From Pseudanabaena cinerea FACHB-1277 (GTDB taxonomy: Bacteria; Cyanobacteriota; Cyanobacteriia; Pseudanabaenales; Pseudanabaenaceae), in contig NZ_JACJPY010000004.1 of the NCBI RefSeq assembly GCF_014696345.1, positions 87,517 to 111,516 of the forward strand: a stretch of DNA of 24,000 nt, in the 5' to 3' direction. A model generated the notes under the pieces. The model searched no databases. It saw only the letters and a list, made by a program, of their open reading frames with translations, and was not told where the DNA came from. Positions 6,382-18,420 of the stretch are shown piece after piece (the stretch's first letter is position 1; every line of letters starts with the position of its first letter). The position numbers and the translations under genes were made by a program.

Positions 6382-6457
6382 GCGATCGCCGATCCTGTAG
6401 GGTGCGTTACATTTCATTAACGCACCTCATCTGATATTCAAAATTCACGCTTTACTA
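6382..6457 (+). repeat. REP/REPIN-like element family 1, copy 0 (right half degenerate, hairpin loop flipped)
   Basis: GCGATCGCCGATCCTGTAGGGTGCGTTA-CATTTCAT-TAACGCACCTCATCTGATATTCAAAAT matches copy A (10112-10206), except that the 8-nt loop is the reverse complement. Similarity decays after ~6445. Confidence 0.75.
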
Positions 6458-6480
6458 AGATTATTTAGGATTTCTAAAGT

Positions 6481-6877
6481 TTAGGCAACAGTTAAGACTG
6501 TCGGTAAGTTGCGAGGACGCTTTGCCCTCACTGCATCAAGATTAAGCTCTAGCTCTAATACCTCTTGATACAAAAACAAAATCGCGCTCAAAGCCTGATT
6601 TTGTGTTGATGCCGCCACATTTTCATCGATTGCTAAAAGTTAAAAAAGCATTAACTTCATCGCCGCCCATTTCGCTAGGATGGCGCTTGTTATGAAATAA
6701 AATAAATCGCCGAACCCATTGCACATAGGACTTTTCAGTTTGATAGGAGTAATGCTTAACTCGAATAGCATCCCTAACGCGATCAAGTAATTTGCGAGGC
6801 GGTGGCTCAGTCTGCCCATTTGGGGTAAATACAGATATCTGATTTTTTAGTATAGGCTTGGGTATGTTACTCAACAT
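6481..6877 (-). pseudogene. intI: integron-type tyrosine recombinase (IntI) remnant: N-terminal third only, with a frameshift
   Basis: The ORF at 6623-6877 encodes YSYQTEKSYVQWVRRFILFHNKRHP. After a frameshift near the T-run at ~6635-6640, the next frame reads [27 protein letters not shown]...[13 protein letters not shown] and stops at 6481. The catalytic C-terminal two-thirds is absent. Confidence 0.75.
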
Positions 6878-7117
6878 TTTGCACGATAAAACTCCATAGA
6901 GGGATATTACCCCGCAAAAAACTGAATATTACACTTTTTAATTGCTTTATCTAGCAAGTTGTGAGATATTAGGGTCATACAAGTATATATCCTGTAATTT
7001 ACAAGATAATATGTAGTTATACGGCATTAAATCCCCTATCTGAAATTCTCTTTTTCCAAAAGGCAGCAATGTAAATCTAAATGTGTAAAATTATTGACAG
7101 TTCTCTGAGGAAAAAGG

Positions 7118-9217
7118 ATGGAAATTAGTCAACTCAAGACTCTACTGGCAGATTCAGAGAACCCCAAATTAGAATTTAAGAGTCAATGGTATTGCAATAC
7201 AGATCAGCTTGACGATAAGGGCTGGGGAGAGTTTCTAAAGGATTTAATTACACTTGCAAATGGAAATTCAGGTTTTGTAGGTCAAACTGGATATTTAATA
7301 ATCGGTGCATCTGATGAAGATCCCAGAATTGGACAGCAACGGGGAATCTCTAATGTAGCTAGAAATGGAATGTTGTCTAATCTGCAAAAGCTACGTGAAA
7401 CAACACTTCGGAAACTTCGTGAAACTTGTAGCCCATCTCCTGCTGACATCGATCTGAGTTTTGTCGAAGTAGAAGGTAAGCATCTGCTTATTATTGAAGT
7501 TCCGCCTCCAGTTGATGCTGTCAAACTCGATCGTGATTTAAACACCAGAGGAATGAGATTTAAAAAGGGCACTGTTCTAATTCGTGTTGGGCAAGACGTT
7601 AGTGTGGCTGATCCAGCAGAGATAAATAACTTAAGAAAAGGGTATCAGGATACTTGGATTCAAACTCAACGAATGGTGCATAATTTACCACAACCCGATT
7701 ATGTAAACTTTATTGGTAGACAAGATGAGCTTGAGAAGCTTCGGAATTTGCTTAATCCCAGAGATCGTATATGGACAATTGTTATTGATGGAATAGGTGG
7801 GATCGGTAAATCTGCTTTAGCTTTGGAAATAGCACATCGATACTTAAACGAATACAATTTTATTCCTGAAGAAGAGCGATTTCAGTCAATTATTTGGATT
7901 TCAGCAAAAGATTCAATTTTAACTGCTGACGGGATCAAAAAGCGTTTTCAGGTAACCAACACCCTTAATGACATTTATAGTCAGATTTCTGTGGTTTTAG
8001 GAGAACAAGAAATTAGCCGCCATAACTTTAAGGAACAAGGTTTTTTAATCAATCGTGCATTGGGGGCAAGAAGAACTCTTCTAATCATTGATAATCTTGA
8101 GACAGTTGATGATGATCGCGTTAATGCTTTTGTTCGAGAACTTCCTAATCCCACAAAATGTATTGTTACTACCCGTCATCGTATTGATGTAGCAGATCCT
8201 ATTCGACTGTCTGCAATGCCTCGAAAAGATGCACTCTCACTAATTCAGCAAGAATGCGACAAGAAAAATGTTCGATTAGATAATTCGCAAATTGAGCTTC
8301 TGTATAAAAGGACGGCAGGAGTTCCCTTAGCTGTAGTTTGGAGTATTGCTCAAATAAGTTATCACGGCTTTGGAGTAGATCAGGTATTAAAACGCTTGGG
8401 TGATGCAAAAGGCGATATAGCCCGTTTCTGCTTTGAAAACGCTGTTCATCACATTCAAGATAAACCTGCTTATAAAATATTAGCTAGTCTGGCTTTATCT
8501 CCAAGATCGATGAGCCGACAAGAAGTAGGAACTGTTGCTGATTTGTCCGAGCTTGATCAAGATGAGGGGTTAGTGATCCTAGAACGCTTATCGCTAATTA
8601 ATAAGAAAGGTGGTCAATTTAGTTTATTACCTCTAGTTCAAGAGTATATCTTAACTAAGGTTAAAGAATTCCCTTTTACTGATTTGAGGCAATTGGTTAT
8701 TCGGTTCTCAGAAAACTATGCTCCTTCAGGTGCAGACTCGCTATCTGCAATTGAGCAATATTTTGGTTCAGAATTGATTACTCCATTAAAGATTGAAGTT
8801 GCAAAGAAGATTGTTGATCAAATGTGGGAATGGGATAGTCAGTGCGATGAAATAGGCGTGAGTTATTGTATTTCAGCTTTGGAGAAGTTGGCAATTGATA
8901 CGGCAATTGATGCCATAAGAGATATTGCGATGTATTCAAATGTTGCATCTCTGGCTGCGTGGATGTACTCCGCTGCTGCTGGCATATTGATTCATGCTGG
9001 CAGGTTAAGAGATTTAATAAATTTGAGCCTTTCCTATCAAAATTTTGATAGCCTTACTGTTGAATCCTTGAAGAAATTTGAGACTGACAAAGTTGTTCAA
9101 GAAATTGACATAGTGTTGGAGATTCAAAAAGAAAATAAATCAGAAATACTACAGCAGTTAAAAGATAAGTTATTGTCTTCAGAAATATATCCATCTTCTG
9201 GCGACCATGCCGTATAA
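7118..9217 (+). CDS. Schlafen/AlbA_2-like N-terminal domain fused to an NB-ARC-type STAND P-loop NTPase
   Basis: 699-aa ORF. The N-terminus ENPKLEFKSQWY...LANGNSG...GYLIIGASDED resembles the AlbA_2/Schlafen core. Also present are Walker A GIGGIGKSALA (nt ~7787-7813), Walker B LLIIDNLE, CIVTTRHR, GVPLAV (GLPL-like) and a winged-helix-like LSLINKKGGQFSLLPLVQEYI. The ~170-aa helical C-terminus is unassigned. Confidence 0.7.
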   Translation: MEISQLKTLLADSENPKLEFKSQWYCNTDQLDDKGWGEFLKDLITLANGNSGFVGQTGYLIIGASDEDPRIGQQRGISNVARNGMLSNLQKLRETTLRKLRETCSPSPADIDLSFVEVEGKHLLIIEVPPPVDAVKLDRDLNTRGMRFKKGTVLIRVGQDVSVADPAEINNLRKGYQDTWIQTQRMVHNLPQPDYVNFIGRQDELEKLRNLLNPRDRIWTIVIDGIGGIGKSALALEIAHRYLNEYNFIPEEERFQSIIWISAKDSILTADGIKKRFQVTNTLNDIYSQISVVLGEQEISRHNFKEQGFLINRALGARRTLLIIDNLETVDDDRVNAFVRELPNPTKCIVTTRHRIDVADPIRLSAMPRKDALSLIQQECDKKNVRLDNSQIELLYKRTAGVPLAVVWSIAQISYHGFGVDQVLKRLGDAKGDIARFCFENAVHHIQDKPAYKILASLALSPRSMSRQEVGTVADLSELDQDEGLVILERLSLINKKGGQFSLLPLVQEYILTKVKEFPFTDLRQLVIRFSENYAPSGADSLSAIEQYFGSELITPLKIEVAKKIVDQMWEWDSQCDEIGVSYCISALEKLAIDTAIDAIRDIAMYSNVASLAAWMYSAAAGILIHAGRLRDLINLSLSYQNFDSLTVESLKKFETDKVVQEIDIVLEIQKENKSEILQQLKDKLLSSEIYPSSGDHAV

Positions 9218-9331
9218 CAATCCCGTTGCACGCCGACCGTATCAATTTAGTCGGTCAAATCCGAAAGGTTACTAGCGGCGGGTGAACGGAGCCGTTAGGC
9301 TACAAGTCTAGGTAACGGAGCAAAAAAACTG

Positions 9332-9763
9332 ATGCCCAATGATATTGTGAAGTATGAGCCAGATGACGCTGGAAATATTGTGACTCATGCTCTACGACAA
9401 ATTTCTGAAAACTCAGAAATAGTTTTATCTGTCAAGGCAGTTAGCAATTGGATTACTGGTTTTACTTGCTACCTTAGCAACGAGGCTGGATTGTATCGAT
9501 CTCAAGAAGTCGATTTCAAAGAAACATTCAAAGATTTTAATCAGTATATTCGCCTATTCAATGCAGGATCTGATTTTCGTGCAAGATCTACCGCAAATTT
9601 TTGTAGACGAGTTCTTCATATGGAAGATTCAAAAACTAAACGCCATTTCATTATCCAGATTGTTAGCAGTTTTCGCCGCGATATGGGTAACTCAATAGAA
9701 AGATTTTCAGAGATTGAAGGACAAATTGTTAATGGATTTCTTGAAAACCCATTTGGGCGTTAA
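9332..9763 (+). CDS. hypothetical protein (143 aa)
   Basis: Clean ORF on the same strand as, and 114 nt downstream of, the STAND gene. The region is AT-rich and lacks HIP1. No recognisable motif. Confidence 0.45.
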   Translation: MPNDIVKYEPDDAGNIVTHALRQISENSEIVLSVKAVSNWITGFTCYLSNEAGLYRSQEVDFKETFKDFNQYIRLFNAGSDFRARSTANFCRRVLHMEDSKTKRHFIIQIVSSFRRDMGNSIERFSEIEGQIVNGFLENPFGR

Positions 9764-9795
9764 AATAAAGTTAATGTTTAAAATTTACTGCTGCT

Positions 9796-10149
9796 ATGCT
9801 CACTGCCTCTCGTACCGTGTCAGTTCCCTTATCTACTAATGCCGATGGTGTGATTTTGGTTGGCAACACTCGTGTAACCATTGATACAGTTGTAGGAAAT
9901 TACAAGCAAGGATTGTCACCTGAAGAAATTGTATCTCGCTACTCATCACTTAATCTATCAGATGTTTATAGCACTATTGCTTTTTATCTAAGCTATCAAC
10001 TAGAGGTTGAAGAATACCTAAAACAACGTCAGCGCATAGCTAAAGGAATTCGAGAAGAGAATCAACTACGGTTTAATTCTCAAGATTTGCGCGATCGCCT
10101 TCTTGCAAGTACGATCGCCGATCTTGTAGGGTGCGTTAATGAAATGTAA
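9796..10149 (+). CDS. DUF433-domain protein (antitoxin-like HTH)
   Basis: 117-aa ORF. GNTRVTIDTVVGNYKQGLSPEEIVSRYSSLNLSDVYSTIAFY fits the DUF433 pattern. The last ~11 codons and the stop lie inside REP copy A. Confidence 0.6.
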   Translation: MLTASRTVSVPLSTNADGVILVGNTRVTIDTVVGNYKQGLSPEEIVSRYSSLNLSDVYSTIAFYLSYQLEVEEYLKQRQRIAKGIREENQLRFNSQDLRDRLLASTIADLVGCVNEM

Positions 10150-10206
10150 CGCACCTCATCTGATATTCAAAATGCGTGCGTTACGCTGACGCTAACACAC
10201 CCTACA
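10112..10206 (+). repeat. REP/REPIN-like element family 1, copy A (full)
   Basis: Flank CGATCGCCGATCTT plus an 80-bp core (10126-10205): GTAGGGTGCGTTA-ATGAAATG-TAACGCACC-spacer-GTGCGTTA-CGCTGACGC-TAACACACCCTAC. Confidence 0.85.
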
Positions 10207-10227
10207 ACATTTCTATATTTCCGATGA

Positions 10228-10779
10228 TTAATCATCCCAAGAGCCTTGAGGTTTGGCTATACGTTCACCACTACCCCAATCCTTGGGATAGACACCTTGA
10301 GTAATGAACCGATGAATACTCGAATATTGCCAATCTTGAGGATTCTCACATAAACCATGCCTCACTGGATTATCATGAATATAATCGCAGTGAATCGCAA
10401 AATCTTTCTCATCACGAATTAAATGTTCCCAAAATCGGCGTTGCCAAAGATTGCTTTCCCCACGCTTCTCTCTTGACTGGGAAATATCACGATTTACTTC
10501 TAATAGCTTTCCATAATGTTTTGTGACGTAAGTTTTGATTAATCTTAATCGTACTGATAAATCACGATCATCAGGCGGTAAAGTCCACAAACAATGGAAA
10601 TGATCGGGCAATAGAACAAAAGCATCAATAGTCAAAGGATACTTCACCCTCACCTTTTCAATCGATTCCCTAAGTGCTTTACGAGCCACATCACAACATA
10701 ACCAAGGTTCACGCTGATAAGTAACCTGAGTAATGAAAAAAGTACCTCCCAATACATGAGATCTTCGATAGTTAGACAT
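10228..10779 (-). CDS. REP-associated tyrosine transposase (RAYT, IS200/IS605-like Y1 HUH transposase)
   Basis: HUH motif in LLPDHFHCLW and a catalytic-Tyr motif in CDYIHDNPVRHGL. It is flanked on both sides by full REP copies A and B. The start is set at MSNYRR (10779), because the longer ORF to 10851 reads through REP B. Confidence 0.8.
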   Translation of the reverse strand: MSNYRRSHVLGGTFFITQVTYQREPWLCCDVARKALRESIEKVRVKYPLTIDAFVLLPDHFHCLWTLPPDDRDLSVRLRLIKTYVTKHYGKLLEVNRDISQSREKRGESNLWQRRFWEHLIRDEKDFAIHCDYIHDNPVRHGLCENPQDWQYSSIHRFITQGVYPKDWGSGERIAKPQGSWDD

Positions 10780-10812
10780 TTGCGTCTGAAGATAACTGAC
10801 ATAGTTAATATA

Positions 10813-10903
10813 CGCCGATCTTGTAGGGTGCGTTAATGAAATGTAACGCACCTCATCTAATGGTCAAAATTCGTGCGTTACGCTGACGCTAACACACCCT
10901 ACA
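10813..10903 (+). repeat. REP/REPIN-like element family 1, copy B (full)
   Basis: The core at 10823-10902 is nearly identical to copy A. Confidence 0.85.
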
Positions 10904-10983
10904 TTTGTTGTACCTTAAACGGGATAAGTTCTTAAGGCTACTTATTGGAACTGAATCACAGCAAAATTTGATACAATAGCTAC

Positions 10984-11256
10984 ATGAAATTTGAGTGGGA
11001 TAAGAACAAAGCGGATCGTAACTTTTCAAAGCACGGAGTTTCCTTCGATGAGGCAAAAACCGTCTTCGATGATCCCCTTTATGTTGACTTTTACGATTCA
11101 CGCCACTCGGACAAAGAAGATCGATTCCTTATTGTTGGTGAATCTAGTCAAGGACGTTTGCTGATTGTTTCGTATACTGAGAGAAGAAACTCAATTCGCA
11201 TTATTAGTACAAGAGAAGTCACAAGATCGGAGCGTGAAGCATATGAAGAAGGTTGA
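10984..11256 (+). CDS. brnT: BrnT-family (DUF497) toxin
   Basis: 90-aa ORF. MKFEWDKNKADRNFSKHGVSFDEAKTVFDDP is the BrnT/DUF497 signature. Confidence 0.8.
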   Translation: MKFEWDKNKADRNFSKHGVSFDEAKTVFDDPLYVDFYDSRHSDKEDRFLIVGESSQGRLLIVSYTERRNSIRIISTREVTRSEREAYEEG

Positions 11257-11506
11257 GTTAGAGATGGAAGACGATCTTCTAGATGAATATGATCTAAAAA
11301 AATTGCGCGTGAGAAGGCTAGGCTCAGGGCGAAAGAGTTTTGGCACTGCAATGGTACGTCTAGATCCTGATGTAGCAGAAATATTTTCTAGTGCAGATGC
11401 AGTTAATGAAGCCCTAAGATTTTTGATCAAAGTGACGCGGCAAAATCAGCCACCCATCCTCACAACGCAGCCTAACACAGCGTTGGAACCGACTACCGAA
11501 AGTTAG
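11243..11506 (+). CDS. brnA: BrnA-family antitoxin
   Basis: It overlaps the brnT stop by 14 nt. The LDPDVAEIF...VNEALRFLI motif is typical of BrnA (ex-DUF4415). The start chosen is the internal ATG at 11243. Confidence 0.65.
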   Translation: MKKVELEMEDDLLDEYDLKKLRVRRLGSGRKSFGTAMVRLDPDVAEIFSSADAVNEALRFLIKVTRQNQPPILTTQPNTALEPTTES

Positions 11507-11516
11507 TCTAAAAAAT

Positions 11517-11612
11517 GCGATCGCCGATCTTATAGGGTGCGTTAATGAAATGTAACGCGCCTTATCTAATGGTCAAAATGCGTGCGTTACGCTGACGCTA
11601 ACACACCCTACA
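11517..11612 (+). repeat. REP/REPIN-like element family 1, copy C (full; GTAG changed to ATAG)
   Basis: The core at 11532-11611 is aligned by eye to copies A, B and D. Confidence 0.85.
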
Positions 11613-11667
11613 TTTCCTAGTCGGCTATAATACTGGACAAGGCAATGATCTAGGAAAACTTATAATC

Positions 11668-11943
11668 ATGGCAGTGCGTCAACCCCGCTATAGCAAAGAA
11701 GAATTTGCCCAACGTGGCGATCTAATTTATCAAACGCAGATACGTCCACAGGTCGAATCAGGTAATCACGGCAAAATAGTTGCTATTGATATTGAGACTG
11801 GAGATTTTGAGATAGCCAATGATACAATGACCGCCACTCGCCGCCTTCGAGAACGTTTGCCCGACTCCCAAACTTGGGTAATCCGAATCGGCTATCGTGC
11901 AGTTCATCGTTTCGGTGCGCGGAGCCTGAAAGAAAAGATATGA
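11668..11943 (+). CDS. small conserved partner protein of a retropepsin-like protease
   Basis: 91-aa ORF whose stop overlaps the next start (ATGA at 11940-11943). No family name could be confirmed. Confidence 0.5.
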   Translation: MAVRQPRYSKEEFAQRGDLIYQTQIRPQVESGNHGKIVAIDIETGDFEIANDTMTATRRLRERLPDSQTWVIRIGYRAVHRFGARSLKEKI

Positions 11944-12326
11944 TGCAAGGATACGTCAATAAGAATTGTGAAGCCACGATTCTTGTAGTCGTTCGTAACA
12001 ATGCCAAACTAAAATCTATTAACACTGTCATTGATACAGGATTTACTGGTTTCCTAAGCCTCCCGAACAACATCATTACTGAACTGGGTTTGCCATGGAG
12101 TTATCGCGATCGCGGAACATTAGGAGACGGTAGTGAGGTTTTGTTTGATATCTATGACGCAGTAGCTATTTGGGATGGCAAAGCTAAAGAGATTGAAGTA
12201 AATTCAGCAGAAACAGATCCATTGATTGGGATGAGTATGCTCCGTGGGTATCGACTGCAAGTAGATACAATTGAGGGCGGATTGGTAATAATTACAGACT
12301 TGTCAGAGCGATCGCCGATCTTGTAG
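11940..12326 (+). CDS. retropepsin-like (clan AA) aspartic protease
   Basis: VIDTGFTGFLSLP contains the D-T-G catalytic triplet in the usual hydrophobic context. Start taken at MMQGYV (11940). The stop codon TAG lies inside REP copy D (cttgTAGggtg). Confidence 0.6.
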   Translation: MMQGYVNKNCEATILVVVRNNAKLKSINTVIDTGFTGFLSLPNNIITELGLPWSYRDRGTLGDGSEVLFDIYDAVAIWDGKAKEIEVNSAETDPLIGMSMLRGYRLQVDTIEGGLVIITDLSERSPIL

Positions 12327-12403
12327 GGTGCGTTAATGAAATGTAACGCACCTTATCTAATGTTCAAGATTCGTGCGTTACGCTGACGCTAACACACCCT
12401 ACA
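12308..12403 (+). repeat. REP/REPIN-like element family 1, copy D (full)
   Basis: Core at 12323-12402. Confidence 0.85.
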
Positions 12404-12423
12404 ACTATAACTAAGATTAAGCC

Positions 12424-12687
12424 ATGTTAGCTACAGAACCTTCTACAAAGATAAATGTTAAACAGACATTGATTCAAGAAATCGATCAGACTTCAGAGGC
12501 TCTTTTAAGCGAAGTTCTAGACTTCCTTTTGTTTATTAGAGCTAAACATACAGATGTTGTTGAATTAGTAGAAGATTATGATGATTCCAAGGAGAAAATC
12601 TTAGAAGATCTGAGGCATTCCTTAGAAGATGCTAAAGCAGGTAGAGTTCACGATATTTCTGAACTTTGGGATGGGATTGATGTCTAG
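12424..12687 (+). CDS. putative antitoxin (87 aa)
   Basis: Acidic small ORF whose stop overlaps the downstream toxin start (ATG 12680, TAG 12685-12687). Confidence 0.5.
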   Translation: MLATEPSTKINVKQTLIQEIDQTSEALLSEVLDFLLFIRAKHTDVVELVEDYDDSKEKILEDLRHSLEDAKAGRVHDISELWDGIDV

Positions 12688-13021
12688 CGATAATCATAAA
12701 TTGAAGATTCAGTTTACAGATGTTTTTAAGCGTCAAGTTCGAGGTTTGGCAAAGCGCTATAAAAGGATTAAATTAGATATTCAACCAGTTTTAGATCAAC
12801 TTCAGAGTGGTGACTTAGTTGGCGATCAGATCCAAGGTACTGGCTTTACAGTATTTAAGGTTCGCATCAAAAATAGCGATATTCAGAAGGGTAAAAGCGG
12901 GGGCTATAGGTTGATTTACTATATTAAAACCTCTGAGAATATTTTATGTGTTTTTTGTCAAAGCACCGAATTTTATTCAGAAAAGTCAGGTGCGTTATAT
13001 TGTATTAACGCACCCTACTGA
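12680..13021 (+). CDS. RelE/ParE-HigB-like toxin, C-terminus replaced by a REP half-element
   Basis: KGKSGGYRLIYYIKTSENI is a RelE/Gp49-type signature. From ~12969 onward the reading frame runs through REP copy E and stops at the TGA following CCCTAC. Confidence 0.6.
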   Translation: MSSDNHKLKIQFTDVFKRQVRGLAKRYKRIKLDIQPVLDQLQSGDLVGDQIQGTGFTVFKVRIKNSDIQKGKSGGYRLIYYIKTSENILCVFCQSTEFYSEKSGALYCINAPY

Positions 13022-13033
13022 ATTGGCGATCGC
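12969..13033 (-). repeat. REP family 1, copy E (half element, inverted, variant loop)
   Basis: AATTTTATTCAGAAAAGTCAGGTGCGTTA-TATTGTAT-TAACGCACCCTAC...GGCGATCGC shares its spacer with copy G. Confidence 0.7.
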
Positions 13034-13040
13034 ACTATAA

Positions 13041-13424
13041 TCATTCAGCAGTAATGTTATTAGACTTTTGAAGGTCAATCAGGTCAGCTACAGAAGCGCT
13101 GATCACAGATATCTTTCTGACTGGATTAATGCGAGCATTTAGCCATTTTTGAAATGACTTTTGACTCTCTCCCGAAGGTTGACCTAAAATCAAATTTTTA
13201 GTGCTGATATCTTCATCTAGTTGCTCCCAGTGAATTCCTTCACCTTGACTAATAGTACGCCAGTCATTACGTTCTTCTTGGGAAGCATTAAGCAGTCTTG
13301 GATACCATGCCAGTGGAACAGAAATTGTCCGTCCATCTGATAGATCGACTGATAAAGTATCGTCTGTGATGGTTACGTCTTGAATTGTTGGTATTTCAAG
13401 GAGTTCAATCGTTAAAGAAGTCAT
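13041..13424 (-). CDS. DUF2442-domain protein
   Basis: 127-aa ORF. LSVDLSDGRTISVPLAWYPRL...GIHWEQLDEDIS fits DUF2442. It overlaps the upstream DUF4160 gene by 20 nt. Confidence 0.7.
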   Translation of the reverse strand: MTSLTIELLEIPTIQDVTITDDTLSVDLSDGRTISVPLAWYPRLLNASQEERNDWRTISQGEGIHWEQLDEDISTKNLILGQPSGESQKSFQKWLNARINPVRKISVISASVADLIDLQKSNNITAE

Positions 13425-13641
13425 TCCATCCTGCCAGCAGTTGCTCTTGATGTTCTTGAATTAGTTTTTGAATATGATTAATTTCTGTGCGGCTAAATCC
13501 TTTGTTTTTCTGTAGGCGGATTGGGGTAAGCCAAAATTTAGCTTGGTCTTGATCTCGCTCAATATGTATGTGCGGTGGTTCATCGCGATCGCCTGCATAG
13601 CAGAAAAAGCGGTAAGCACCGACTCTTAATAATGTTGGCAT
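13405..13641 (-). CDS. DUF4160-domain protein
   Basis: 78-aa ORF. YRFFCYAGDRDEPPHIHIERD fits the DUF4160 signature. Confidence 0.7.
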   Translation of the reverse strand: MPTLLRVGAYRFFCYAGDRDEPPHIHIERDQDQAKFWLTPIRLQKNKGFSRTEINHIQKLIQEHQEQLLAGWNDFFND

Positions 13642-13760
13642 TTGAGGATATAGGTTTATAGCTAAACATTAGCTGATATCAATTTGACCGTCAATATCTA
13701 GTCACCCTATCATCAATAAGTTTACCATGCGCCAAAACAACTAGTTATCGTCAACTATTG

Positions 13761-13808
13761 GGTACATTCTATTTCATTAATACACCGTACATGATTGGCG
13801 AAGGTCGC
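13761..13808 (-). repeat. REP family 1, degenerate half copy
   Basis: GGTACATTCTATTTCATTAATACACCGTACATGATTGGCGAAGGTCGC aligns to the hairpin-plus-flank of the family with about 10 substitutions. Confidence 0.45.
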
Positions 13809-13822
13809 ACAGATTTTATCTA

Positions 13823-13916
13823 GTAGCGTGAGTTAGCAGAGCGTAACGCACAAGTAATTAGCATTAAATAAGGTGCGTTACATTTCATTAACGCACCCTA
13901 CAAGATCGGCGATCGC
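13823..13916 (-). repeat. REP/REPIN-like element family 1, copy F (full length, inverted, distal half diverged)
   Basis: It ends with GGTGCGTTACATTTCATTAACGCACCCTACAAGATCGGCGATCGC. The proximal part GTAGCGTGAGTTAGCAGAGCGTAACGCAC is a diverged second hairpin. Confidence 0.75.
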
Positions 13917-13940
13917 ATTTATAGTTAGTTAGATTCTTTT

Positions 13941-14189
13941 TTAAAGTCGATTATTAACATTTAAAATAGTCAGACCAATAATTTCATCATTTTGATAGCG
14001 GATTAAAATATTTTCATCGGTGAGTTCACTATCATCGGCAGCAAGGGCGGGTTGATGAAAATTGATGTATAACACATCAGCTTCGACATCATAAAATGTC
14101 CAAGTATTCTTCTTGGGTAGAGTTTTAATTGCATTAGCTAAGTTAAGATAGCTAGGAATTTTGAGGGGAGTTAAAGGGGTTGTGACCAT
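13941..14189 (-). CDS. DUF2283-domain protein (antitoxin-like)
   Basis: 82-aa ORF. FYDVEADVLYINF...ILIRYQNDEIIGLTILN fits DUF2283. Confidence 0.6.
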   Translation of the reverse strand: MVTTPLTPLKIPSYLNLANAIKTLPKKNTWTFYDVEADVLYINFHQPALAADDSELTDENILIRYQNDEIIGLTILNVNNRL

Positions 14190-14482
14190 ACTTCTTTACG
14201 TTTGTTGAGAGAATTGATACGTTTAGTAATATAGGCGGTGATGACAAACCCGTCTTCTTGTGCTTCTTTATAAATTGTAACCAAATGCTTATTATCACTT
14301 AGCAACTTGATCGCTAAAAGCTCACCATCATTGCCTTCTAAAATTCTATCAGGATTTTCTATGGTTTGGATGATTTCGGGCTGAAGGTGCAGAAGTTCGG
14401 GATGCCCTTCGGTTATGTGTTGCCATCTTTCTTCAGTTAGGCGAATGGTTAGTCCGCTTTTGGCGGATGCGATCAAGGGCAT
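14171..14482 (-). CDS. small toxin-like partner protein (103 aa), family not recognised
   Basis: It overlaps the downstream DUF2283 gene by 19 nt. This is a two-gene architecture like the neighbouring TA pairs. Confidence 0.45.
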   Translation of the reverse strand: MPLIASAKSGLTIRLTEERWQHITEGHPELLHLQPEIIQTIENPDRILEGNDGELLAIKLLSDNKHLVTIYKEAQEDGFVITAYITKRINSLNKRKEVWSQPL

Positions 14483-14570
14483 AGGGGTTGTCGAGTAAGA
14501 GGGTTGCTAAGTTATCAATCTAAATCTAAATTGCCCCCTCATCATCAAATTTACTATTCGGTAACTCATT

Positions 14571-14632
14571 CAATTTTATTCAGAAAAATAAGGTGCGTTA
14601 CATTTCATTAACGCACCCTACAAGATCGGCGG
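14571..14632 (-). repeat. REP family 1, copy G (half element, inverted)
   Basis: AATTTTATTCAGAAAAATAAGGTGCGTTACATTTCATTAACGCACCCTACAAGATCGGCGG. It abuts the stop codon of the 14633-15031 gene. Confidence 0.75.
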
Positions 14633-15031
14633 TTACTGACAAGCACCTATAATTCTTGGATCAATAACTATTCCACTAATACGCCTATTTAAAGTAAGAT
14701 AACCTTGGAAGTTACCTTCTTCATCAACAATAATTGGAGGATTTGTTGCCCTAGGGTTGCAGGCACTAACATCTGAAAACTTACTTCCCCAGTTTCCAAA
14801 TCTGTTATATATACTTGTATCAGAAAATCGGCTTCCAAAGTCACCGAATCTATTAGACAAAGAGTTATCATCAAATTTGTTGCAATTAATACATCCAAGA
14901 AAAACAATACCTCGCCTTCCATTTTCTAAAGAACCATAGATTAGTAAAGGTGATTCAGCAAAAGAATTATCTACAAGCAAGAAAAAGCTAGAAAGCAAAG
15001 AAAAAAAAGACAGTTTTTTATGTATTTTCAT
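14633..15031 (-). CDS. secreted 4-Cys protein with duplicated NRFG-x-(F/W)GS(R/K)FSD-x-S motif
   Basis: 132-aa ORF with an N-terminal signal-peptide-like MKIHKKLSFFSLLSSFFLLVDNSFA. It carries the tandem motifs NRFGDFGSRFSDTS and NRFGNWGSKFSDVS and four Cys residues. Very AT-rich. Confidence 0.55.
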   Translation of the reverse strand: MKIHKKLSFFSLLSSFFLLVDNSFAESPLLIYGSLENGRRGIVFLGCINCNKFDDNSLSNRFGDFGSRFSDTSIYNRFGNWGSKFSDVSACNPRATNPPIIVDEEGNFQGYLTLNRRISGIVIDPRIIGACQ

Positions 15032-15109
15032 ATATTTTAAATGTTAAATGTGCCTAACACCAAACAAATTCTTGATTTTGGAGCTTTTATAATGTTGAAA
15101 TATAAGAGT

Positions 15110-15736
15110 TTATTTTTTGAATTTTCTGTACTCATCCCTACGAAAGATGTAATCAGTATGACTAGGAGTAATATTCCAAATAGAAAAAATAATTTCTTCT
15201 TCGTTAAATCCCTTCGCTTCAAAGAATCTGATTTTCTTTTTTAGGTCTGTACTTGTAGAATCATTTTCTTGATAAGACTTCTCTCCTTCCTTGACTCCGC
15301 TTTCTCTAGCTTTTCTTAAGTCTTCTTTTGTTGCAGTCATTCCACTGGAAAAATAAAGTTCTGCTGCTTTCCCCATACCGTATGTCCAGCCATAAACAAA
15401 ACTAGAGCCGACTAATCCTCCTGCTCCTGGCAAACCAATTTTGAATAAAGCTAGAATTGTCTGCTGTCCAATAATACCACCGCCTATTACTGCTACGATT
15501 TCACCTACAGATTTTTCGCTAATTTTGTAGCCATAAACATTTCCAATAGCTCTAACCATAAGATACTGAACGGGCGTAATTGTAACAATATCAGCAAATG
15601 GAACAGGAGCTAATGCTAGGGTTGCACCAGCAGCACCAGCTACTACCCTAATCTGAGAACAAATCTTTTTTCTCTCATCATCATTACGGTCTGAGAAATC
15701 TCCGTTAATATATTCATATATATCGTCTAAGTTCAT
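15110..15736 (-). CDS. DUF697-like glycine-rich membrane protein
   Basis: 208-aa ORF. ALAPVPFADIVTITPVQYLMVRAIGNVYG and LPGAGGLVGSSFVYGWTYGMGKAA match the DUF697/YcjF-type pattern as I recall it. The C-terminal tail is charged. Confidence 0.55.
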   Translation of the reverse strand: MNLDDIYEYINGDFSDRNDDERKKICSQIRVVAGAAGATLALAPVPFADIVTITPVQYLMVRAIGNVYGYKISEKSVGEIVAVIGGGIIGQQTILALFKIGLPGAGGLVGSSFVYGWTYGMGKAAELYFSSGMTATKEDLRKARESGVKEGEKSYQENDSTSTDLKKKIRFFEAKGFNEEEIIFSIWNITPSHTDYIFRRDEYRKFKK

Positions 15737-15752
15737 AACGCTTTAGGTTAAG

Positions 15753-16175
15753 TTATCTCATGAGTGTACATGTGTAATAAAGTGCATTTTGAAAAAGTGA
15801 TGTAGATGGTCGGGTAAAACTGCTACTTACTTTTTCTATATTTTGTATTACTTGCCCACGTTGCCAAATCGTAGACTTAATAAGTCGGTACTCGTTTTGA
15901 TTACAATTAACTTGATAGACATTGTATTCAGCACGAATTCTGTCAAGAGATTCACCATAAATAGGTACTCGGAACTCTCGATTATCTAAATTGCTTATTT
16001 TTTGTACATCAAGAATGTTTATGTAGTAACACATATTACGTTCTTGATGAAATGAATCAACTTTAGCTGTAACAAAGTCAATCTTAGGACATACATTGTT
16101 TTGGGCATTGGTCTCAATTGGCAACGAAAAAGATAAGTTAGTGAGTAAAAAGATGTAGCCTATAATTTTTTTCAC
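15753..16175 (-). CDS. secreted 4-Cys protein (140 aa), unknown family
   Basis: Signal-peptide-like MKKIIGYIFLLTNLSFSLPIETNA and four Cys residues. It is the first gene of the AT-rich operon, with a 16-nt gap to the next gene. Confidence 0.5.
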   Translation of the reverse strand: MKKIIGYIFLLTNLSFSLPIETNAQNNVCPKIDFVTAKVDSFHQERNMCYYINILDVQKISNLDNREFRVPIYGESLDRIRAEYNVYQVNCNQNEYRLIKSTIWQRGQVIQNIEKVSSSFTRPSTSLFQNALYYTCTLMR

Positions 16176-16265
16176 TGTTTAAGTCTGTGTATTTTTTATT
16201 TGTTTGTATAAAGTATATTAAATGAATTTATTGAGATTTAAAAGCGGAAAAAGACGGAATGCTAA

Positions 16266-16393
16266 AAATTTACGCTCATATAGGAATTTGGGTGAAAGAC
16301 CTACTTTATTAAAAAGTCACACTTTGTCGCCGCAACGGTTTAAGCCAGATCGTTTAATTGGCTTCACCTGCTTACCCATATGAGCGAAAATTT
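16266..16393. repeat. 19-bp imperfect inverted repeats bracketing a ~90-bp structured segment
   Basis: AAATTTACGCTCATATAGG (16266-16284) pairs with CCCATATGAGCGAAAATTT (16375-16393) at 17/19 positions. There is an internal hairpin AAGCCA-n11-TGGCTT. Confidence 0.5.
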
Positions 16394-16400
16394 AATTTAA

Positions 16401-16434
16401 GTCGGAAAAAGGCAAAAAATACGGTTATAGTCGG
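16401..16434 (+). repeat. ~34-bp direct repeat, copy 1 (CGGAAAAAGGCAAAAAATACGGTTATAGTCGG)
   Basis: A related copy lies at 17167-17201, and a partial copy GCGGAAAAAGACGG at 16244-16257. The two long copies bracket the vapBC module. Confidence 0.5.
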
Positions 16435-16484
16435 AGCGATATGAGTTAGCTAGACAGCGAGCTGATCAGTGAATAAAACCTGAA

Positions 16485-16874
16485 TCATGGAATTGTTGCT
16501 ATATCTGCATAGCCTAAAATTTTTGTATCCATAGTTACTAAAGGGCAGTTGTAAACTTTAGCTGTCGCTATGATAATTTGATCAGCAGGATCACGATGGA
16601 AATTTACCAACTGAGTGGATGCAATGGCAATTTGAGGGGTTAGGTCTAGTAATTGTACGGCTGGGTAGGACAAAGCTTTTTCAAACCACTCTGAAATTTC
16701 ACAAGGAAGCGTCAAGCGATTGTATTCGACTAATTTTGCAATTTCCCAACAGGAAATGACGCTAATGCCAATAGTTAAAGACTCGTGGTCTTCAATGGCT
16801 ATTTTGGCAGTTTGGCTAAGTCTTGGATCGCCATGTACCCACCAAATCCAGATATGTGTGTCTAAAATAATCAT
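16485..16874 (-). CDS. vapC: VapC-family PIN-domain toxin
   Basis: MIILDTHIWIWW is a PIN N-terminus with the conserved Asp. The start overlaps the antitoxin stop (ATGA at 16871-16874). Confidence 0.8.
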   Translation of the reverse strand: MIILDTHIWIWWVHGDPRLSQTAKIAIEDHESLTIGISVISCWEIAKLVEYNRLTLPCEISEWFEKALSYPAVQLLDLTPQIAIASTQLVNFHRDPADQIIIATAKVYNCPLVTMDTKILGYADIATIP

Positions 16875-17074
16875 ACTATGACTTCCCAATCGGACATTGC
16901 TACAGGTTCCATAGGATCGATGTATTCGATTGGTAAGCCGCGCAGGGGATATTTTTTAGTTGTAGATGGCGTATGGTGGGTCAAGCCAAATACTTGCAAT
17001 AGCTTCAAGGTCTTTTCTAGCTCAGATTCAGACATCCGATTAAGTTCATCAATGAGCAACTCTTTTACAGTCAT
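16871..17074 (-). CDS. VapB-position antitoxin (67 aa)
   Basis: Small ORF immediately upstream of vapC and translationally coupled to it. Confidence 0.6.
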   Translation of the reverse strand: MTVKELLIDELNRMSESELEKTLKLLQVFGLTHHTPSTTKKYPLRGLPIEYIDPMEPVAMSDWEVIV

Positions 17075-17166
17075 GACTTAATTACCGCTTGCTTTAAGTT
17101 GTTTGAGTGAGCAATCGCTTCTAACTTAACCATTTTACAATCACTACAAGATTAAATTTAGCTAAA

Positions 17167-17201
17167 TACGGAAAAAGACAGGAAAAGACGGTTATAATCG
17201 G
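17167..17201 (+). repeat. ~34-bp direct repeat, copy 2 (CGGAAAAAGACAGGAAAAGACGGTTATAATCGG)
   Basis: See 16401-16434. It contains TATAAT at 17189-17194, about 34 nt upstream of the ATG at 17228. Confidence 0.5.
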
Positions 17202-17227
17202 GTTTGTGGATTTATGGCTTTGTAAGT

Positions 17228-17740
17228 ATGGATGTTAAAGAATTGTTGAAATTTGTTGATGAGAGTATGTTTGCGAAGACGGGGAAAAGACTTAATGATT
17301 TGCAGCGTCAGGTGATTGAGGGAGCGCTGAATCATCGGAAATATGTGGATATTGCGGAATCTTTTGAGAAAAGCGAAGGTCATGTTAAAGATACTGGTTA
17401 TGAGCTTCTACAAATACTTTCAGAGATTTTTGAAGAACCAGTTAAGAAAGGGAACCTTAAATCTGTTTTAGAGAGACAGAGAAGTAATGTAACTGTTAAT
17501 GTTGGGGATGGGAATGTCGGAAACTTTGGACATATCAATAATTGCGTGAATTTTAATAGCGATCGCCTATCACCTAAACCCAATCAAGTTCCATTAGAAA
17601 AAACTGACACTCTGCAAGAAAAGCAAATAGCGAAAATCAATAAACTGCGCGATCGCGGTTTAAATGATGAAGAAATTGCCGAACTTTTAGAGATTCCTTT
17701 AGAGTCAATTACAGCTATAAATTTAGAAGAATCGGCTTAG
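17228..17740 (+). CDS. stand-alone HTH protein resembling the N-terminal module of cyanobacterial STAND/NACHT-WD40 conflict-system proteins
   Basis: LNDLQRQVIEGALNHRKYVDIAESFEKSEGHVKDTGYELLQILSEIF is a sigma70-region-4/LuxR-like HTH. A second HTH-like KINKLRDRGLNDEEIAELLEI lies at the C-terminus. Start taken at MDVKELL (17228). Confidence 0.5.
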   Translation: MDVKELLKFVDESMFAKTGKRLNDLQRQVIEGALNHRKYVDIAESFEKSEGHVKDTGYELLQILSEIFEEPVKKGNLKSVLERQRSNVTVNVGDGNVGNFGHINNCVNFNSDRLSPKPNQVPLEKTDTLQEKQIAKINKLRDRGLNDEEIAELLEIPLESITAINLEESA

Positions 17741-17765
17741 TTCTTAAACCAATTAGCATCATGCG

Positions 17766-18197
17766 TTACACATTGCGCGATCGCCTAGGAAATATATCAA
17801 AAGCCAACTGCGAACGGTAAAAGCACACATCAAACTCAATAAAAAAGTTTAGCTGACCTAAAATAAGTGGTGGATCGTTAGATTTAGCCCAAGCAAAAGC
17901 CAAAATAACTGGTGGAAAGTCATCAATTTGCGCTATCACAGCTAACCCCTTTGCTTCCACTGGCGCAAGATTACCTGATAGGGGAATTGAGAGAGCTTTT
18001 GATCTTCCCAGACAGCCCCTAATTCTAAGCCAAGAGCATAGGGCATAACATTTAGGCTCGCTCCCGTATCTAAATAATCCAAAAACTTCCAAAGTGCGAT
18101 CGCCATAACTCAAAGCAATAGGCACGCAAGGAAAGACATTCGTTTCACCCTTTGAATTTCTTCGCTCAATAAAAGGAAATCGCTTAGGAATTGACAT
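17766..18197 (-). CDS. hypothetical protein, possibly a degenerate retropepsin-like fold
   Basis: 143-aa ORF overlapping the upstream small ORF by 14 nt. Its size and partner architecture mirror 11668-12326, but the expected D-(T/S)-G position reads R-Y-G. Confidence 0.4.
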   Translation of the reverse strand: MSIPKRFPFIERRNSKGETNVFPCVPIALSYGDRTLEVFGLFRYGSEPKCYALCSWLRIRGCLGRSKALSIPLSGNLAPVEAKGLAVIAQIDDFPPVILAFAWAKSNDPPLILGQLNFFIEFDVCFYRSQLAFDIFPRRSRNV

Positions 18198-18420
18198 TTG
18201 TTTGCGCCCTTTTTCTTTCTTCTTCAGGCTCTAACAAACTCATCAATTTCTGAGCAGCATCACCATAGTCATAGGGCGACCACAGCCGATAAGCTGCAAC
18301 ATTATCTAATGGCTTTAGCCCTTCTTCCTTGGCTAATTCTGACATTAAAAACTGTACCATCTGAAACTTTTCGGTACGCGACAATTGCTCAACTTGAGTC
18401 AGTAATTCAAGATTTGACAT
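18184..18420 (-). CDS. small antitoxin-like partner protein (78 aa)
   Basis: Helical acidic ORF immediately upstream of, and overlapping, 17766-18197. Confidence 0.45.
   Translation of the reverse strand: MSNLELLTQVEQLSRTEKFQMVQFLMSELAKEEGLKPLDNVAAYRLWSPYDYGDAAQKLMSLLEPEEERKRAQTNVNS

Follow-up and report, generated by a model that had tools for sequence, protein, structure and literature searches.

The locus examined here raises the question of what a 699-residue protein, encoded by a stand-alone gene next to the remnant of an integron integrase, does in a cyanobacterium. The window, a 24,000-nucleotide stretch of Pseudanabaena cinerea FACHB-1277 (contig NZ_JACJPY010000004.1, positions 87,517 to 111,516), carries this gene at 7118..9217 on the plus strand, and the product combines a Schlafen/AlbA_2 head, an NB-ARC switch and a helical C-terminal tail. 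We consider it probable that the product is a single-chain STAND (NLR-like) conflict or immune protein, whose three modules would provide a single-gene, self-sacrificing action against viruses.

An intact gene for a three-module protein

The open reading frame (ORF) is intact in the ORF list of the window, with an ATG start and 699 codons, and it lies exactly where a sequence-only reading of this DNA had placed it. All motifs quoted in that reading were found in the translation, both in the head (ENPKLEFKSQWY at residues 14-25, LANGNSG at 46-52, GYLIIGASDED at 58-68 and GKHLLIIEVPP at 119-129) and in the NTPase (GIGGIGKSALA at 225-235, LLIIDNLE at 321-328, CIVTTRHR at 348-355, GVPLAV at 401-406 and LLPLVQEYI at 503-511). 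The protein had further been described as having an effector-switch-sensor order and as being shorter than typical Avs proteins. Both descriptions hold: a Schlafen head, an NB-ARC module and C-terminal helical repeats follow one another within 699 residues of a single gene, which is the tripartite effector-STAND-repeat sensor order of the Avs-type architecture. The gene and its parts are as follows:

7007..7117, plus strand: 5' region conserved with the gene, start of an 86%-identical DNA block in common with Lusitaniella
7118..9217, plus strand: complete gene for the Schlafen-NB-ARC-helical-repeat protein, 699 amino acids, stop codon included
7118..7642, plus strand: N-terminal Schlafen/AlbA_2 nuclease-type head (PF04326), residues 1-175, predicted effector
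7157..7180, plus strand: catalytic Ex4ExK motif E14-N-P-K-L-E19-F-K21, from conservation in the homologues
7643..7702, plus strand: linker between head and NTPase, residues 176-195, poorly conserved and modelled with low confidence
7703..8692, plus strand: NB-ARC STAND NTPase module (PF00931), residues 196-525, with nucleotide-binding domain, helical domain and winged helix
7790..7813, plus strand: Walker A motif or P-loop, GIGGIGKS, residues 225-232
8078..8101, plus strand: Walker B motif, LLIIDNLE, residues 321-328
8693..9214, plus strand: C-terminal helical arm and about three degenerate HEAT/PBS-type repeats, residues 526-699, predicted sensor or autoinhibitory module

A Shine-Dalgarno-like sequence, GAGGAAAAAGG, lies immediately before the ATG, and a consensus-based scan for promoters and terminators around the gene gave nothing above chance. 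Comparison with three homologues yielded ratios of non-synonymous to synonymous substitution rates (dN/dS) of 0.10-0.17 in each domain and of about 0.12 overall; because every domain is under purifying selection, the gene is judged to be real, functional and well conserved. The identical protein was found again in several metagenome samples, on contigs with the same neighbours. Residue conservation is given below for an alignment of 35 full-length homologues (43-87% identical), on which an AlphaFold2 model of the full protein was built, with a mean predicted local distance difference test score (pLDDT) of 82.

A Schlafen head with a complete nuclease motif

The call of an AlbA_2 domain at the N-terminus was borne out by a Pfam search of the whole protein, in which residues 14-160 matched SLFN_AlbA_2 (PF04326; E=1.3e-9) with 39.1 bits against a curated cutoff of 25.3. 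The head searched alone matched the same profile at E=1.1e-10, and 30 of the 35 family members match it as well. E14, E19 and K21 of the Ex4ExK motif are invariant in the homologues, as is D42, and D66 is conserved in at least 90% of them. The spacing of the motif is that of the CbCash triad E17/D22/K24 and of the Ex4(E/D)xK logo of prokaryotic Schlafens. CbCash (PDB 9ylu) is also the sole PDB chain matched by the head sequence (E=0.011 for the single-sequence search, 1.3e-4 for the family profile). The head is a predicted Schlafen-type nuclease, which would have a metal-dependent RNase (tRNase) activity. The linker that follows shows the lowest conservation outside the tail (residues 176-195), and its pLDDT falls below 50 at residues 179-184.

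An NB-ARC switch

The expected NB-ARC domain was recovered at residues 202-407 (PF00931; E=9.4e-13) with 48.4 bits against a cutoff of 23.5, whereas the profiles of sister STAND families stayed below their cutoffs: NACHT reached E=0.1 and 12.9 bits (cutoff 26.7), and nSTAND3 reached 14.9 bits. Invariant residues of the homologues include G225, G227, G228, G230 and K231 in the Walker A motif, L321, D325, N326 and E328 in the Walker B motif, sensor-1 R353 in the TTR motif, and G401 and P403 of the GxP motif (GVPLA). Foldseek searches of the PDB with the model pointed to a fold of nucleotide-binding, helical and winged-helix domains (NBD-HD1-WHD) and gave the archaeal STAND-TPR protein PH0952 (6mfv) as the best match (E=1.5e-12) and Apaf-1 at 5e-10. 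Matches in the range 1.5e-12 to 1e-7 also included CED-4, several plant resistosomes (NLRs) and Avs3, a comparison with Avs structures having been proposed beforehand; MalT was matched as well. The family profile searched against PDB sequences found PH0952 at 3.7e-11.

A short helical tail

Modelled separately, the C-terminal 185 residues form ten helices with a pLDDT of 86.6 and a predicted template modelling score (pTM) of 0.81. No specific fold match was found for the tail in the PDB, the best Foldseek E value being 0.02 (designed helical repeats and 14-3-3 proteins). HEAT_2 or HEAT_PBS profiles are matched in the tail of four of the 35 homologues. In an exhaustive search of 1.84 billion representatives, a profile of the tail found just 29 proteins at E <=1e-3: members of the family, four NB-ARC proteins of 560-620 residues that have the same tail and no Schlafen head and, with weaker E values and several matched stretches per protein, bona fide HEAT-repeat proteins, NACHT-HEAT proteins among them. 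From the HEAT_2/HEAT_PBS hits and the HEAT matches of the tail profile, the tail is read as a helical arm with about three degenerate HEAT-type repeats after it. No other part of the protein diverges as fast: the median identity of the tail to the query is 38%, as against about 65% for head and NTPase, which corresponds to a twofold rate. A TENA/THI-4 match in the tail (E=0.017-0.18) was dismissed, being below threshold and without support from the fold search.

The four head-less proteins (P0079, P0097, P0128 and P0142) are metagenomic, P0097 being labelled Anaerolineae. Their N-termini are short and unannotated (about 60-130 residues) where the Schlafen head would be. The four proteins may represent this chassis without a head or with an alternative one.

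Relatives of the protein and exchange of its head

About 50 clusters with the full architecture and a length of 690-715 residues are present in a collection of 5.8 billion proteins, and those with a name are all cyanobacterial. A scan of 185,579 species-representative genomes with two short peptide patterns of the Schlafen head found the family in five cyanobacteria (Lusitaniella, Rivularia, Scytolyngbya, Limnoraphis and Richelia), a count that is a lower bound, and one distant head in Chloroflexus. The NB-ARC module is 55-60% identical to that of hundreds of NB-ARC-TPR proteins of about 860 residues from Chloroflexi and other phyla. Those sampled have an EAD10, EAD7 or DUF4062 head where the 699-residue protein has a Schlafen domain. 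Heads are thus exchanged on a common NB-ARC switch, as is typical of conflict-type STANDs.

No full-length family member was found on the plasmids searched. A Rhizobium etli plasmid, pRetIE4771b, encodes an 853-residue protein (WP_040140559.1; locus L025, 5830-8391) with a collinear SLFN_AlbA_2, NB-ARC and TPR order. It is annotated as 'RNA-binding domain-containing protein' and adjoins a thermonuclease-family gene on this conjugative plasmid. A similar SLFN_AlbA_2/NB-ARC match occurs on a Phaeobacter inhibens plasmid. The Schlafen-NB-ARC architecture is therefore wider than the cyanobacterial family, and fusions of this type exist unrecognised in Proteobacteria.

Two other relatives depart from the common plan. 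Richelia sinica FACHB-800 encodes a 1,216-residue in-frame 'double STAND' (P0044; L019, 10001-13651), in which a Schlafen-NB-ARC unit minus most of the HEAT-like tail is followed by a NACHT and NCH2 module; either a genuine fusion of two NLR-like genes or a read-through could account for it. At 31% identity, a 235-residue stand-alone Schlafen with a coiled-coil tail, in a metagenome-assembled genome of Chloroflexus sp. (L020, 9030-13080), is the head's most distant relative. On one side it has a RAMP-like gene (GTSLKGCIRS motif) and on the other a gene that resembles a CARF nuclease, both judged by eye from the sequence. Such surroundings would be those of a type III CRISPR accessory gene and recall Cash.

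Variable genomic contexts of the homologues

The contexts of about nine homologues all differ, and a partner gene is conserved in none of them; the family is therefore a stand-alone, often relocated gene. Its nearest named relative, in Lusitaniella coriacea, is 87% identical and has an IntI fragment just upstream, its other neighbours being entirely different. The DNA block in common with the window begins 111 bp upstream of the start codon and extends to 11 bp beyond the stop codon. Yet another context surrounds a metagenomic relative with 93% identity. Of the other copies, one lies beside BrnT, one has Uma2, a Schlafen-group-3-like helicase and GIY-YIG in its vicinity, and others occur in a mobile region with FtsK and Phd or among transposases. 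No CRISPR association was seen in the family contexts compared. The defence-island neighbourhoods at issue in the sequence-only reading were thus found in part: the contexts are variable and often mobile, but just one of the nine or so is an obvious defence island and two consist of housekeeping genes.

The defence island (L005, with HerA-like, methylase, PAPS reductase, HNH, DO-GTPase, WD40 and AAA_5 genes) is a gene-dense metagenomic contig (1-22124) carrying homologue P0038. A HerA-like DUF87 ATPase occurs there together with a methylase-like gene, PAPS reductase with HNH, the DO-GTPase with a WD40 propeller, and a 966-residue, McrB-like AAA_5 protein beside its large partner. Among these neighbours, several may themselves constitute defence or conflict systems.

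Proposed mechanism and alternative explanations

The active, tRNA-binding sites of Schlafen nucleases are formed across subunit interfaces. At rest, the 699-residue protein would probably be a monomer that holds ADP in its NB-ARC module and is kept closed by the C-terminal arm and the HEAT-like repeats. A trigger, most likely a protein of a cyanophage or some change that infection brings about, would be recognised by the tail or would release it. Nucleotide exchange and oligomerisation of the NB-ARC module would follow, as in apoptosomes, resistosomes and Avs tetramers, and would gather the N-terminal heads into active nuclease sites. Since Schlafen active sites span subunit interfaces, clustering of the heads would therefore switch on the cleavage of RNA, most likely tRNA. 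The resulting halt of translation would leave the infected cell arrested or dead (abortive infection).

The literature offers precedents. CbCash, a tRNase whose triad is E17/D22/K24, becomes active when it forms filaments, in which its catalytic interfaces are aligned (PMC13462974). RorSlfn5 is a phage-triggered tRNase that forms a higher-order oligomer (PMC13056530). Avs9 kills Escherichia coli, and its toxicity needs the AlbA_2 site E14/D19/D45/E65 (PMC12680541). A more specific version, which we put forward only tentatively, describes a minimal NLR, in which an arm of about 170 residues and about three HEAT-like repeats gate the NB-ARC module and oligomerisation directly assembles a tRNase of the SLFN/SAMD9 type. 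Because the tail is under purifying selection, the cue in this version might be conserved and endogenous or linked to translation, rather than a fast-evolving phage protein.

From the domain architecture and its precedents we infer a role in defence. This role is favoured by the position of the window copy in a low-GC (guanine-cytosine), HIP1-poor island rich in toxin-antitoxin genes, and by the existence of the NB-ARC and tail chassis without a Schlafen head. What the analysis shows directly is the identity of the domains, the intact and invariant catalytic and NTPase motifs, purifying selection, the exchange of heads among the closest NB-ARC relatives, a stand-alone gene and variable, often mobile contexts; the nature of the trigger, oligomerisation, the RNA that is cut and protection against phage are inferred. 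A number of points weigh on the other side. The pTM of the full AlphaFold2 model is 0.46, which leaves the relative placement of the domains uncertain. The winged helix does not end in a conserved MHD-type histidine: among the 35 homologues the corresponding position in LLPLVQEY varies between P, S, H and I; loss of this histidine is common in bacterial NB-ARC members and does not exclude the fold. About three repeats are few for a protein-recognition sensor, and among close relatives the tail has no excess of non-synonymous change (gene-average dN/dS 0.10-0.17), so that it bears no arms-race signature at that depth. Two homologues lie among housekeeping genes. None of the families of PADLOC v2.0.0, AVAST/Avs/NLR-like models included, matches the protein at E up to 1, and a PADLOC search of ten proteins of the window island found no known defence gene, with just one marginal PDC-S29 match. 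No phage-borne relative was found in 50,697 phage records, a result that is neutral.

The same machine could instead be a programmed-cell-death, kin-conflict or addiction module, in which the cue is endogenous (stress, the state of translation, a lost partner, or non-self contact in filamentous or colonial cyanobacteria) and leads to death or arrest of the cell; this would also stabilise the mobile island with the gene. Purifying selection on the tail would suit a conserved endogenous ligand. The closest NB-ARC relatives are EAD/DUF4062 'conflict system' proteins, which are enriched in multicellular bacteria, the family is restricted to cyanobacteria, and the window copy lies in a toxin-antitoxin island rather than among recognised defence systems. 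This explanation shares its domain logic with an anti-phage role and is hard to separate from it by sequence, but the bacterial Schlafens and STANDs characterised so far answer phage, and one homologue lies in a classic defence island; we regard it as unlikely.

A signal-transducing regulator of the MalT/GutR/AfsR type, in which AlbA_2 would be a nucleic-acid-binding output and the NB-ARC-tail portion would sense a metabolite, is quite improbable. Many relatives of the NB-ARC module are annotated as 'LuxR family glucitol operon transcriptional activator', structural or sequence searches retrieve MalT, AfsR and PH0952, DNA- or RNA-binding is a routine annotation of AlbA_2 proteins, and two homologues have housekeeping neighbours. 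Against these stand the invariance of the full nuclease triad, which a pure binding domain would not need, and the heads of the relatives, which are EADs and DUF4062 and not helix-turn-helix (HTH) domains. Moreover, neither an HTH nor any other DNA-binding output domain was detected with Pfam, and an operon or target gene is conserved in none of the nine or so contexts. That the gene is a decaying passenger of a dead mobile element, with no current function, is extremely improbable. It does adjoin a frameshifted, truncated integrase in a REPIN-invaded, low-GC island, but the 699-codon frame is intact, the functional motifs are invariant in 35 homologues and the identical protein recurs in several metagenome samples. 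The selection analysis (dN/dS about 0.12 in all domains against three homologues) largely refutes this explanation.

Comparison with known systems

Among the known systems closest to the conflict or immune protein proposed here is Avs9 (Pseudomonas fluorescens A0A7T4VS34; AlbA_2-SIR2-P-loop NTPase-TPR-OB), a bacterial analogue of human SAMD9/9L (PMC12680541). In both, a single gene encodes an N-terminal AlbA_2/Schlafen effector on a STAND NTPase with a helical-repeat C-terminus, and the acidic catalytic positions are nearly equal (E14/D19/D45/E65 in Avs9, E14/E19/D42/D66 here). By its published description, Avs9 has about twice the length (some 1,400 residues are covered by the structural similarity to SAMD9 alone) and contains SIR2, OB and a SAMD9-type P-loop, whereas the 699-residue protein has an NB-ARC core of the AP-ATPase clade, about three HEAT-like repeats and no SIR2, TPR or OB match in Pfam at E up to 1. 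The earlier statement that a Schlafen-like head is not known as an Avs effector is out of date, given that Avs9 toxicity depends on the AlbA_2 site.

A Schlafen RNase head on a STAND NTPase is also found in bNACHT34, where it was noted in a preprint (Kibby et al.), and in 'Cluster 5', a reported cluster of type III CRISPR-associated Schlafen-NACHT proteins (PMC13462974). Activation by oligomerisation is predicted for both, but their NTPase is NACHT rather than NB-ARC. Cash (Csx15-Schlafen; CbCash, 9ylu) and RorSlfn5 (Schlafen-Ig-like) have a homologous head with E-x4-(E/D)-x-K and a fused sensor that activates through oligomerisation. The sensor is a cA4-binding Rossmann-like domain in CbCash and an Ig-like domain in RorSlfn5, and both proteins are without an NTPase switch. 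The 699-residue protein falls within the published definition of pSlfn, in which a putative sensor is joined to a Slfn domain that carries Ex4(E/D)xK (PMC13056530). On a further criterion for such proteins, a known defence gene within 10 kb, the picture is mixed: the copy on L005 lies in a clear defence-type island, the window island gave just the marginal PDC-S29 match, and the other contexts vary. The order of head, NB-ARC and helical repeats is that of the NB-ARC-TPR 'conflict system' STANDs (Kaur/Aravind class) and PH0952 (6mfv), except that the conflict-system proteins have adaptor-like EAD7/EAD10 or DUF4062 heads and TPR arrays of about 340 residues where the present protein has an enzyme head and a short HEAT-like tail. 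The R. etli protein WP_040140559.1 is collinear in SLFN_AlbA_2 and NB-ARC, has E-x4-D-x-K and is 22% identical over residues 28-518. It differs by its TPR tail, its proteobacterial host and its conjugative plasmid, and it shows the spread of the architecture and nothing on function.

The sequence-only reading had called the protein an undescribed candidate. Schlafen-STAND fusions as such are already published (bNACHT34, Avs9 and the Schlafen-NACHT cluster), so what stands of that claim is the combination of an NB-ARC core, compact size and HEAT-like tail. No Schlafen-NB-ARC link in bacteria was found in the literature searched, the supplementary architecture tables of two 2026 Schlafen papers excepted. 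The protein would work like Avs and bacterial NLR proteins, yet by PADLOC, by the NACHT profile and by the domains of Avs9 it falls outside the named families.

Schlafen tRNases were established as bacterial immune effectors just in 2025-2026, and the Schlafen-STAND fusions so far are large and of the NACHT or SAMD9 type. In the present protein the ATPase of plant resistance proteins and Apaf-1 is joined to a Schlafen head within 699 residues, so that it could be a tractable model of how STAND oligomerisation leads to Schlafen nuclease activity, relevant to human SAMD9/9L and SLFN11; its small size makes it a good experimental candidate. It would also add a family missed by PADLOC v2.0.0, and an example of cyanobacterial defence or conflict cargo beside an integron-integrase remnant. 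If the minimal-NLR version were true, this would be the first NB-ARC-driven Schlafen effector, uniting a plant NLR ATPase and an animal Schlafen effector in one bacterial protein small enough for full structural dissection. No new principle would be involved, effector swapping on STAND scaffolds being well established and the combination conceptually expected.

The low-GC island around the gene

A gap of about 3.7 kb in the HIP1 sites around the gene, already noticed in the first reading, was confirmed: HIP1 (GCGATCGC) occurs 37 times in the window, as against 0.36 expected by chance, and not once between 6390 and 10090. The GC content is about 0.38 over 6.5-18.5 kb and 0.45-0.50 in the flanks. 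Upstream of the 699-residue gene lie, in order, the asparaginyl-tRNA synthetase gene (asnS), a REP-like repeat (REP, repetitive extragenic palindrome) and the divergent integron-integrase remnant; downstream follow a 143-residue ORF and a DUF433 gene, and then small genes up to an aminotransferase gene. The elements of the island comprise:

6397..6426, plus strand: REP-like singlet (GTAG plus palindrome), left edge of the HIP1-free 3.7 kb
6484..6877, minus strand: N-terminal remnant of an integron integrase (IntI; PF13495, E=3.9e-18), frameshifted near 6623 and truncated after about 130 residues
10126..10205, plus strand: first 80-nt REPIN-like doublet, right edge of the HIP1-free 3.7 kb, fold z about -5.4 against shuffles
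10228-10851, minus strand: Y1/IS200-like (RAYT-like) transposase gene between two doublets
10823-10902, 11532-11611 and 12323-12402: further REPIN-like doublets of the repeat-bearing part of the window (6397-14621)
13823-13901: degenerate REPIN-like doublet
12985-13018 and 14588-14621: REP-like singlets, in addition to that at 6397

The integrase remnant, also named in the first reading, consists of a piece at 6623-6877 and a second, in a shifted frame, at 6484-6624, and it starts 241 bp upstream of the 699-residue gene. For the joined fragment, the integron-integrase profile TIGR02249 gives E=2e-33, with positions 1-104 of its 315 covered (the N-terminal third), and XerD gives 3e-4. It ends where the REP-like element and asnS begin. 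The remnant is context and lies outside the mechanism of the protein. A diverged IntI counterpart (L001, 9652-9909; about 56% amino-acid identity) is found at the corresponding place upstream of the homologue in Lusitaniella, and IntI fragments are absent near the other homologue loci compared (L002-L014 and L016-L021). Two independent attI insertions were considered and not retained, since an IntI identity of about 56% equally fits neutral decay of a co-inherited pseudogene (synonymous divergence, dS, of the gene about 0.55); the two scenarios are inseparable on these data.

Sedentary chromosomal integrons store streamlined defence cassettes (bioRxiv 10.1101/2024.07.02.601686), and an integron cassette array was considered, with the 80-107-nt repeats of the island as attC sites. 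It was rejected: the repeats are units of GTAG plus a palindrome, arranged as head-to-head 80-nt doublets, they have a Y1 (RAYT-like) transposase gene between them, and RYYYAAC/GTTRRRY cores are absent from them, so that they are REP/REPIN elements and not attC. An attC-like candidate, GTATAAC...GTTAGGC, at 9212-9300 has a fold z of -1.4 to -1.7 against shuffles and its Lusitaniella counterpart one of about 0. The conserved sequence islands just after the gene, common to the window and Lusitaniella, fold no better than shuffled sequence. A divergent integrase adjoins the gene, as for a cassette, but the status of the gene as a cassette is not established.

Each REP/REPIN unit reads (T)GTAG followed by the palindrome GGTG(C/T)GTTA-loop-TAACGCAC, and head-to-head pairs of units form the 80-nt doublets, which have very stable folds. 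Most of these elements have a HIP1 site before them (GCGATCGCCGATC). They are confined to the low-GC island, where they lie between small ORFs, with the exception of one weak match with two mismatches at 930.

From 9332 to 18200, between the housekeeping flanks asnS and the aminotransferase gene, the window carries a dense run of small genes of toxin-antitoxin type and orphan genes:

From 9332: orf143 and DUF433, start of the run
10984-11506: BrnT and its partner
11668-12326: orf91 and a clan AA aspartic protease (TIGR03698, E=1e-17)
12629: weak, sub-threshold ParE/RelE-like match
13041, minus strand: DUF2442
14171, minus strand: PBECR2 nuclease
15110, minus strand: DUF697
16485, minus strand: PIN
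17204: weak, sub-threshold match to sigma-70 region 4

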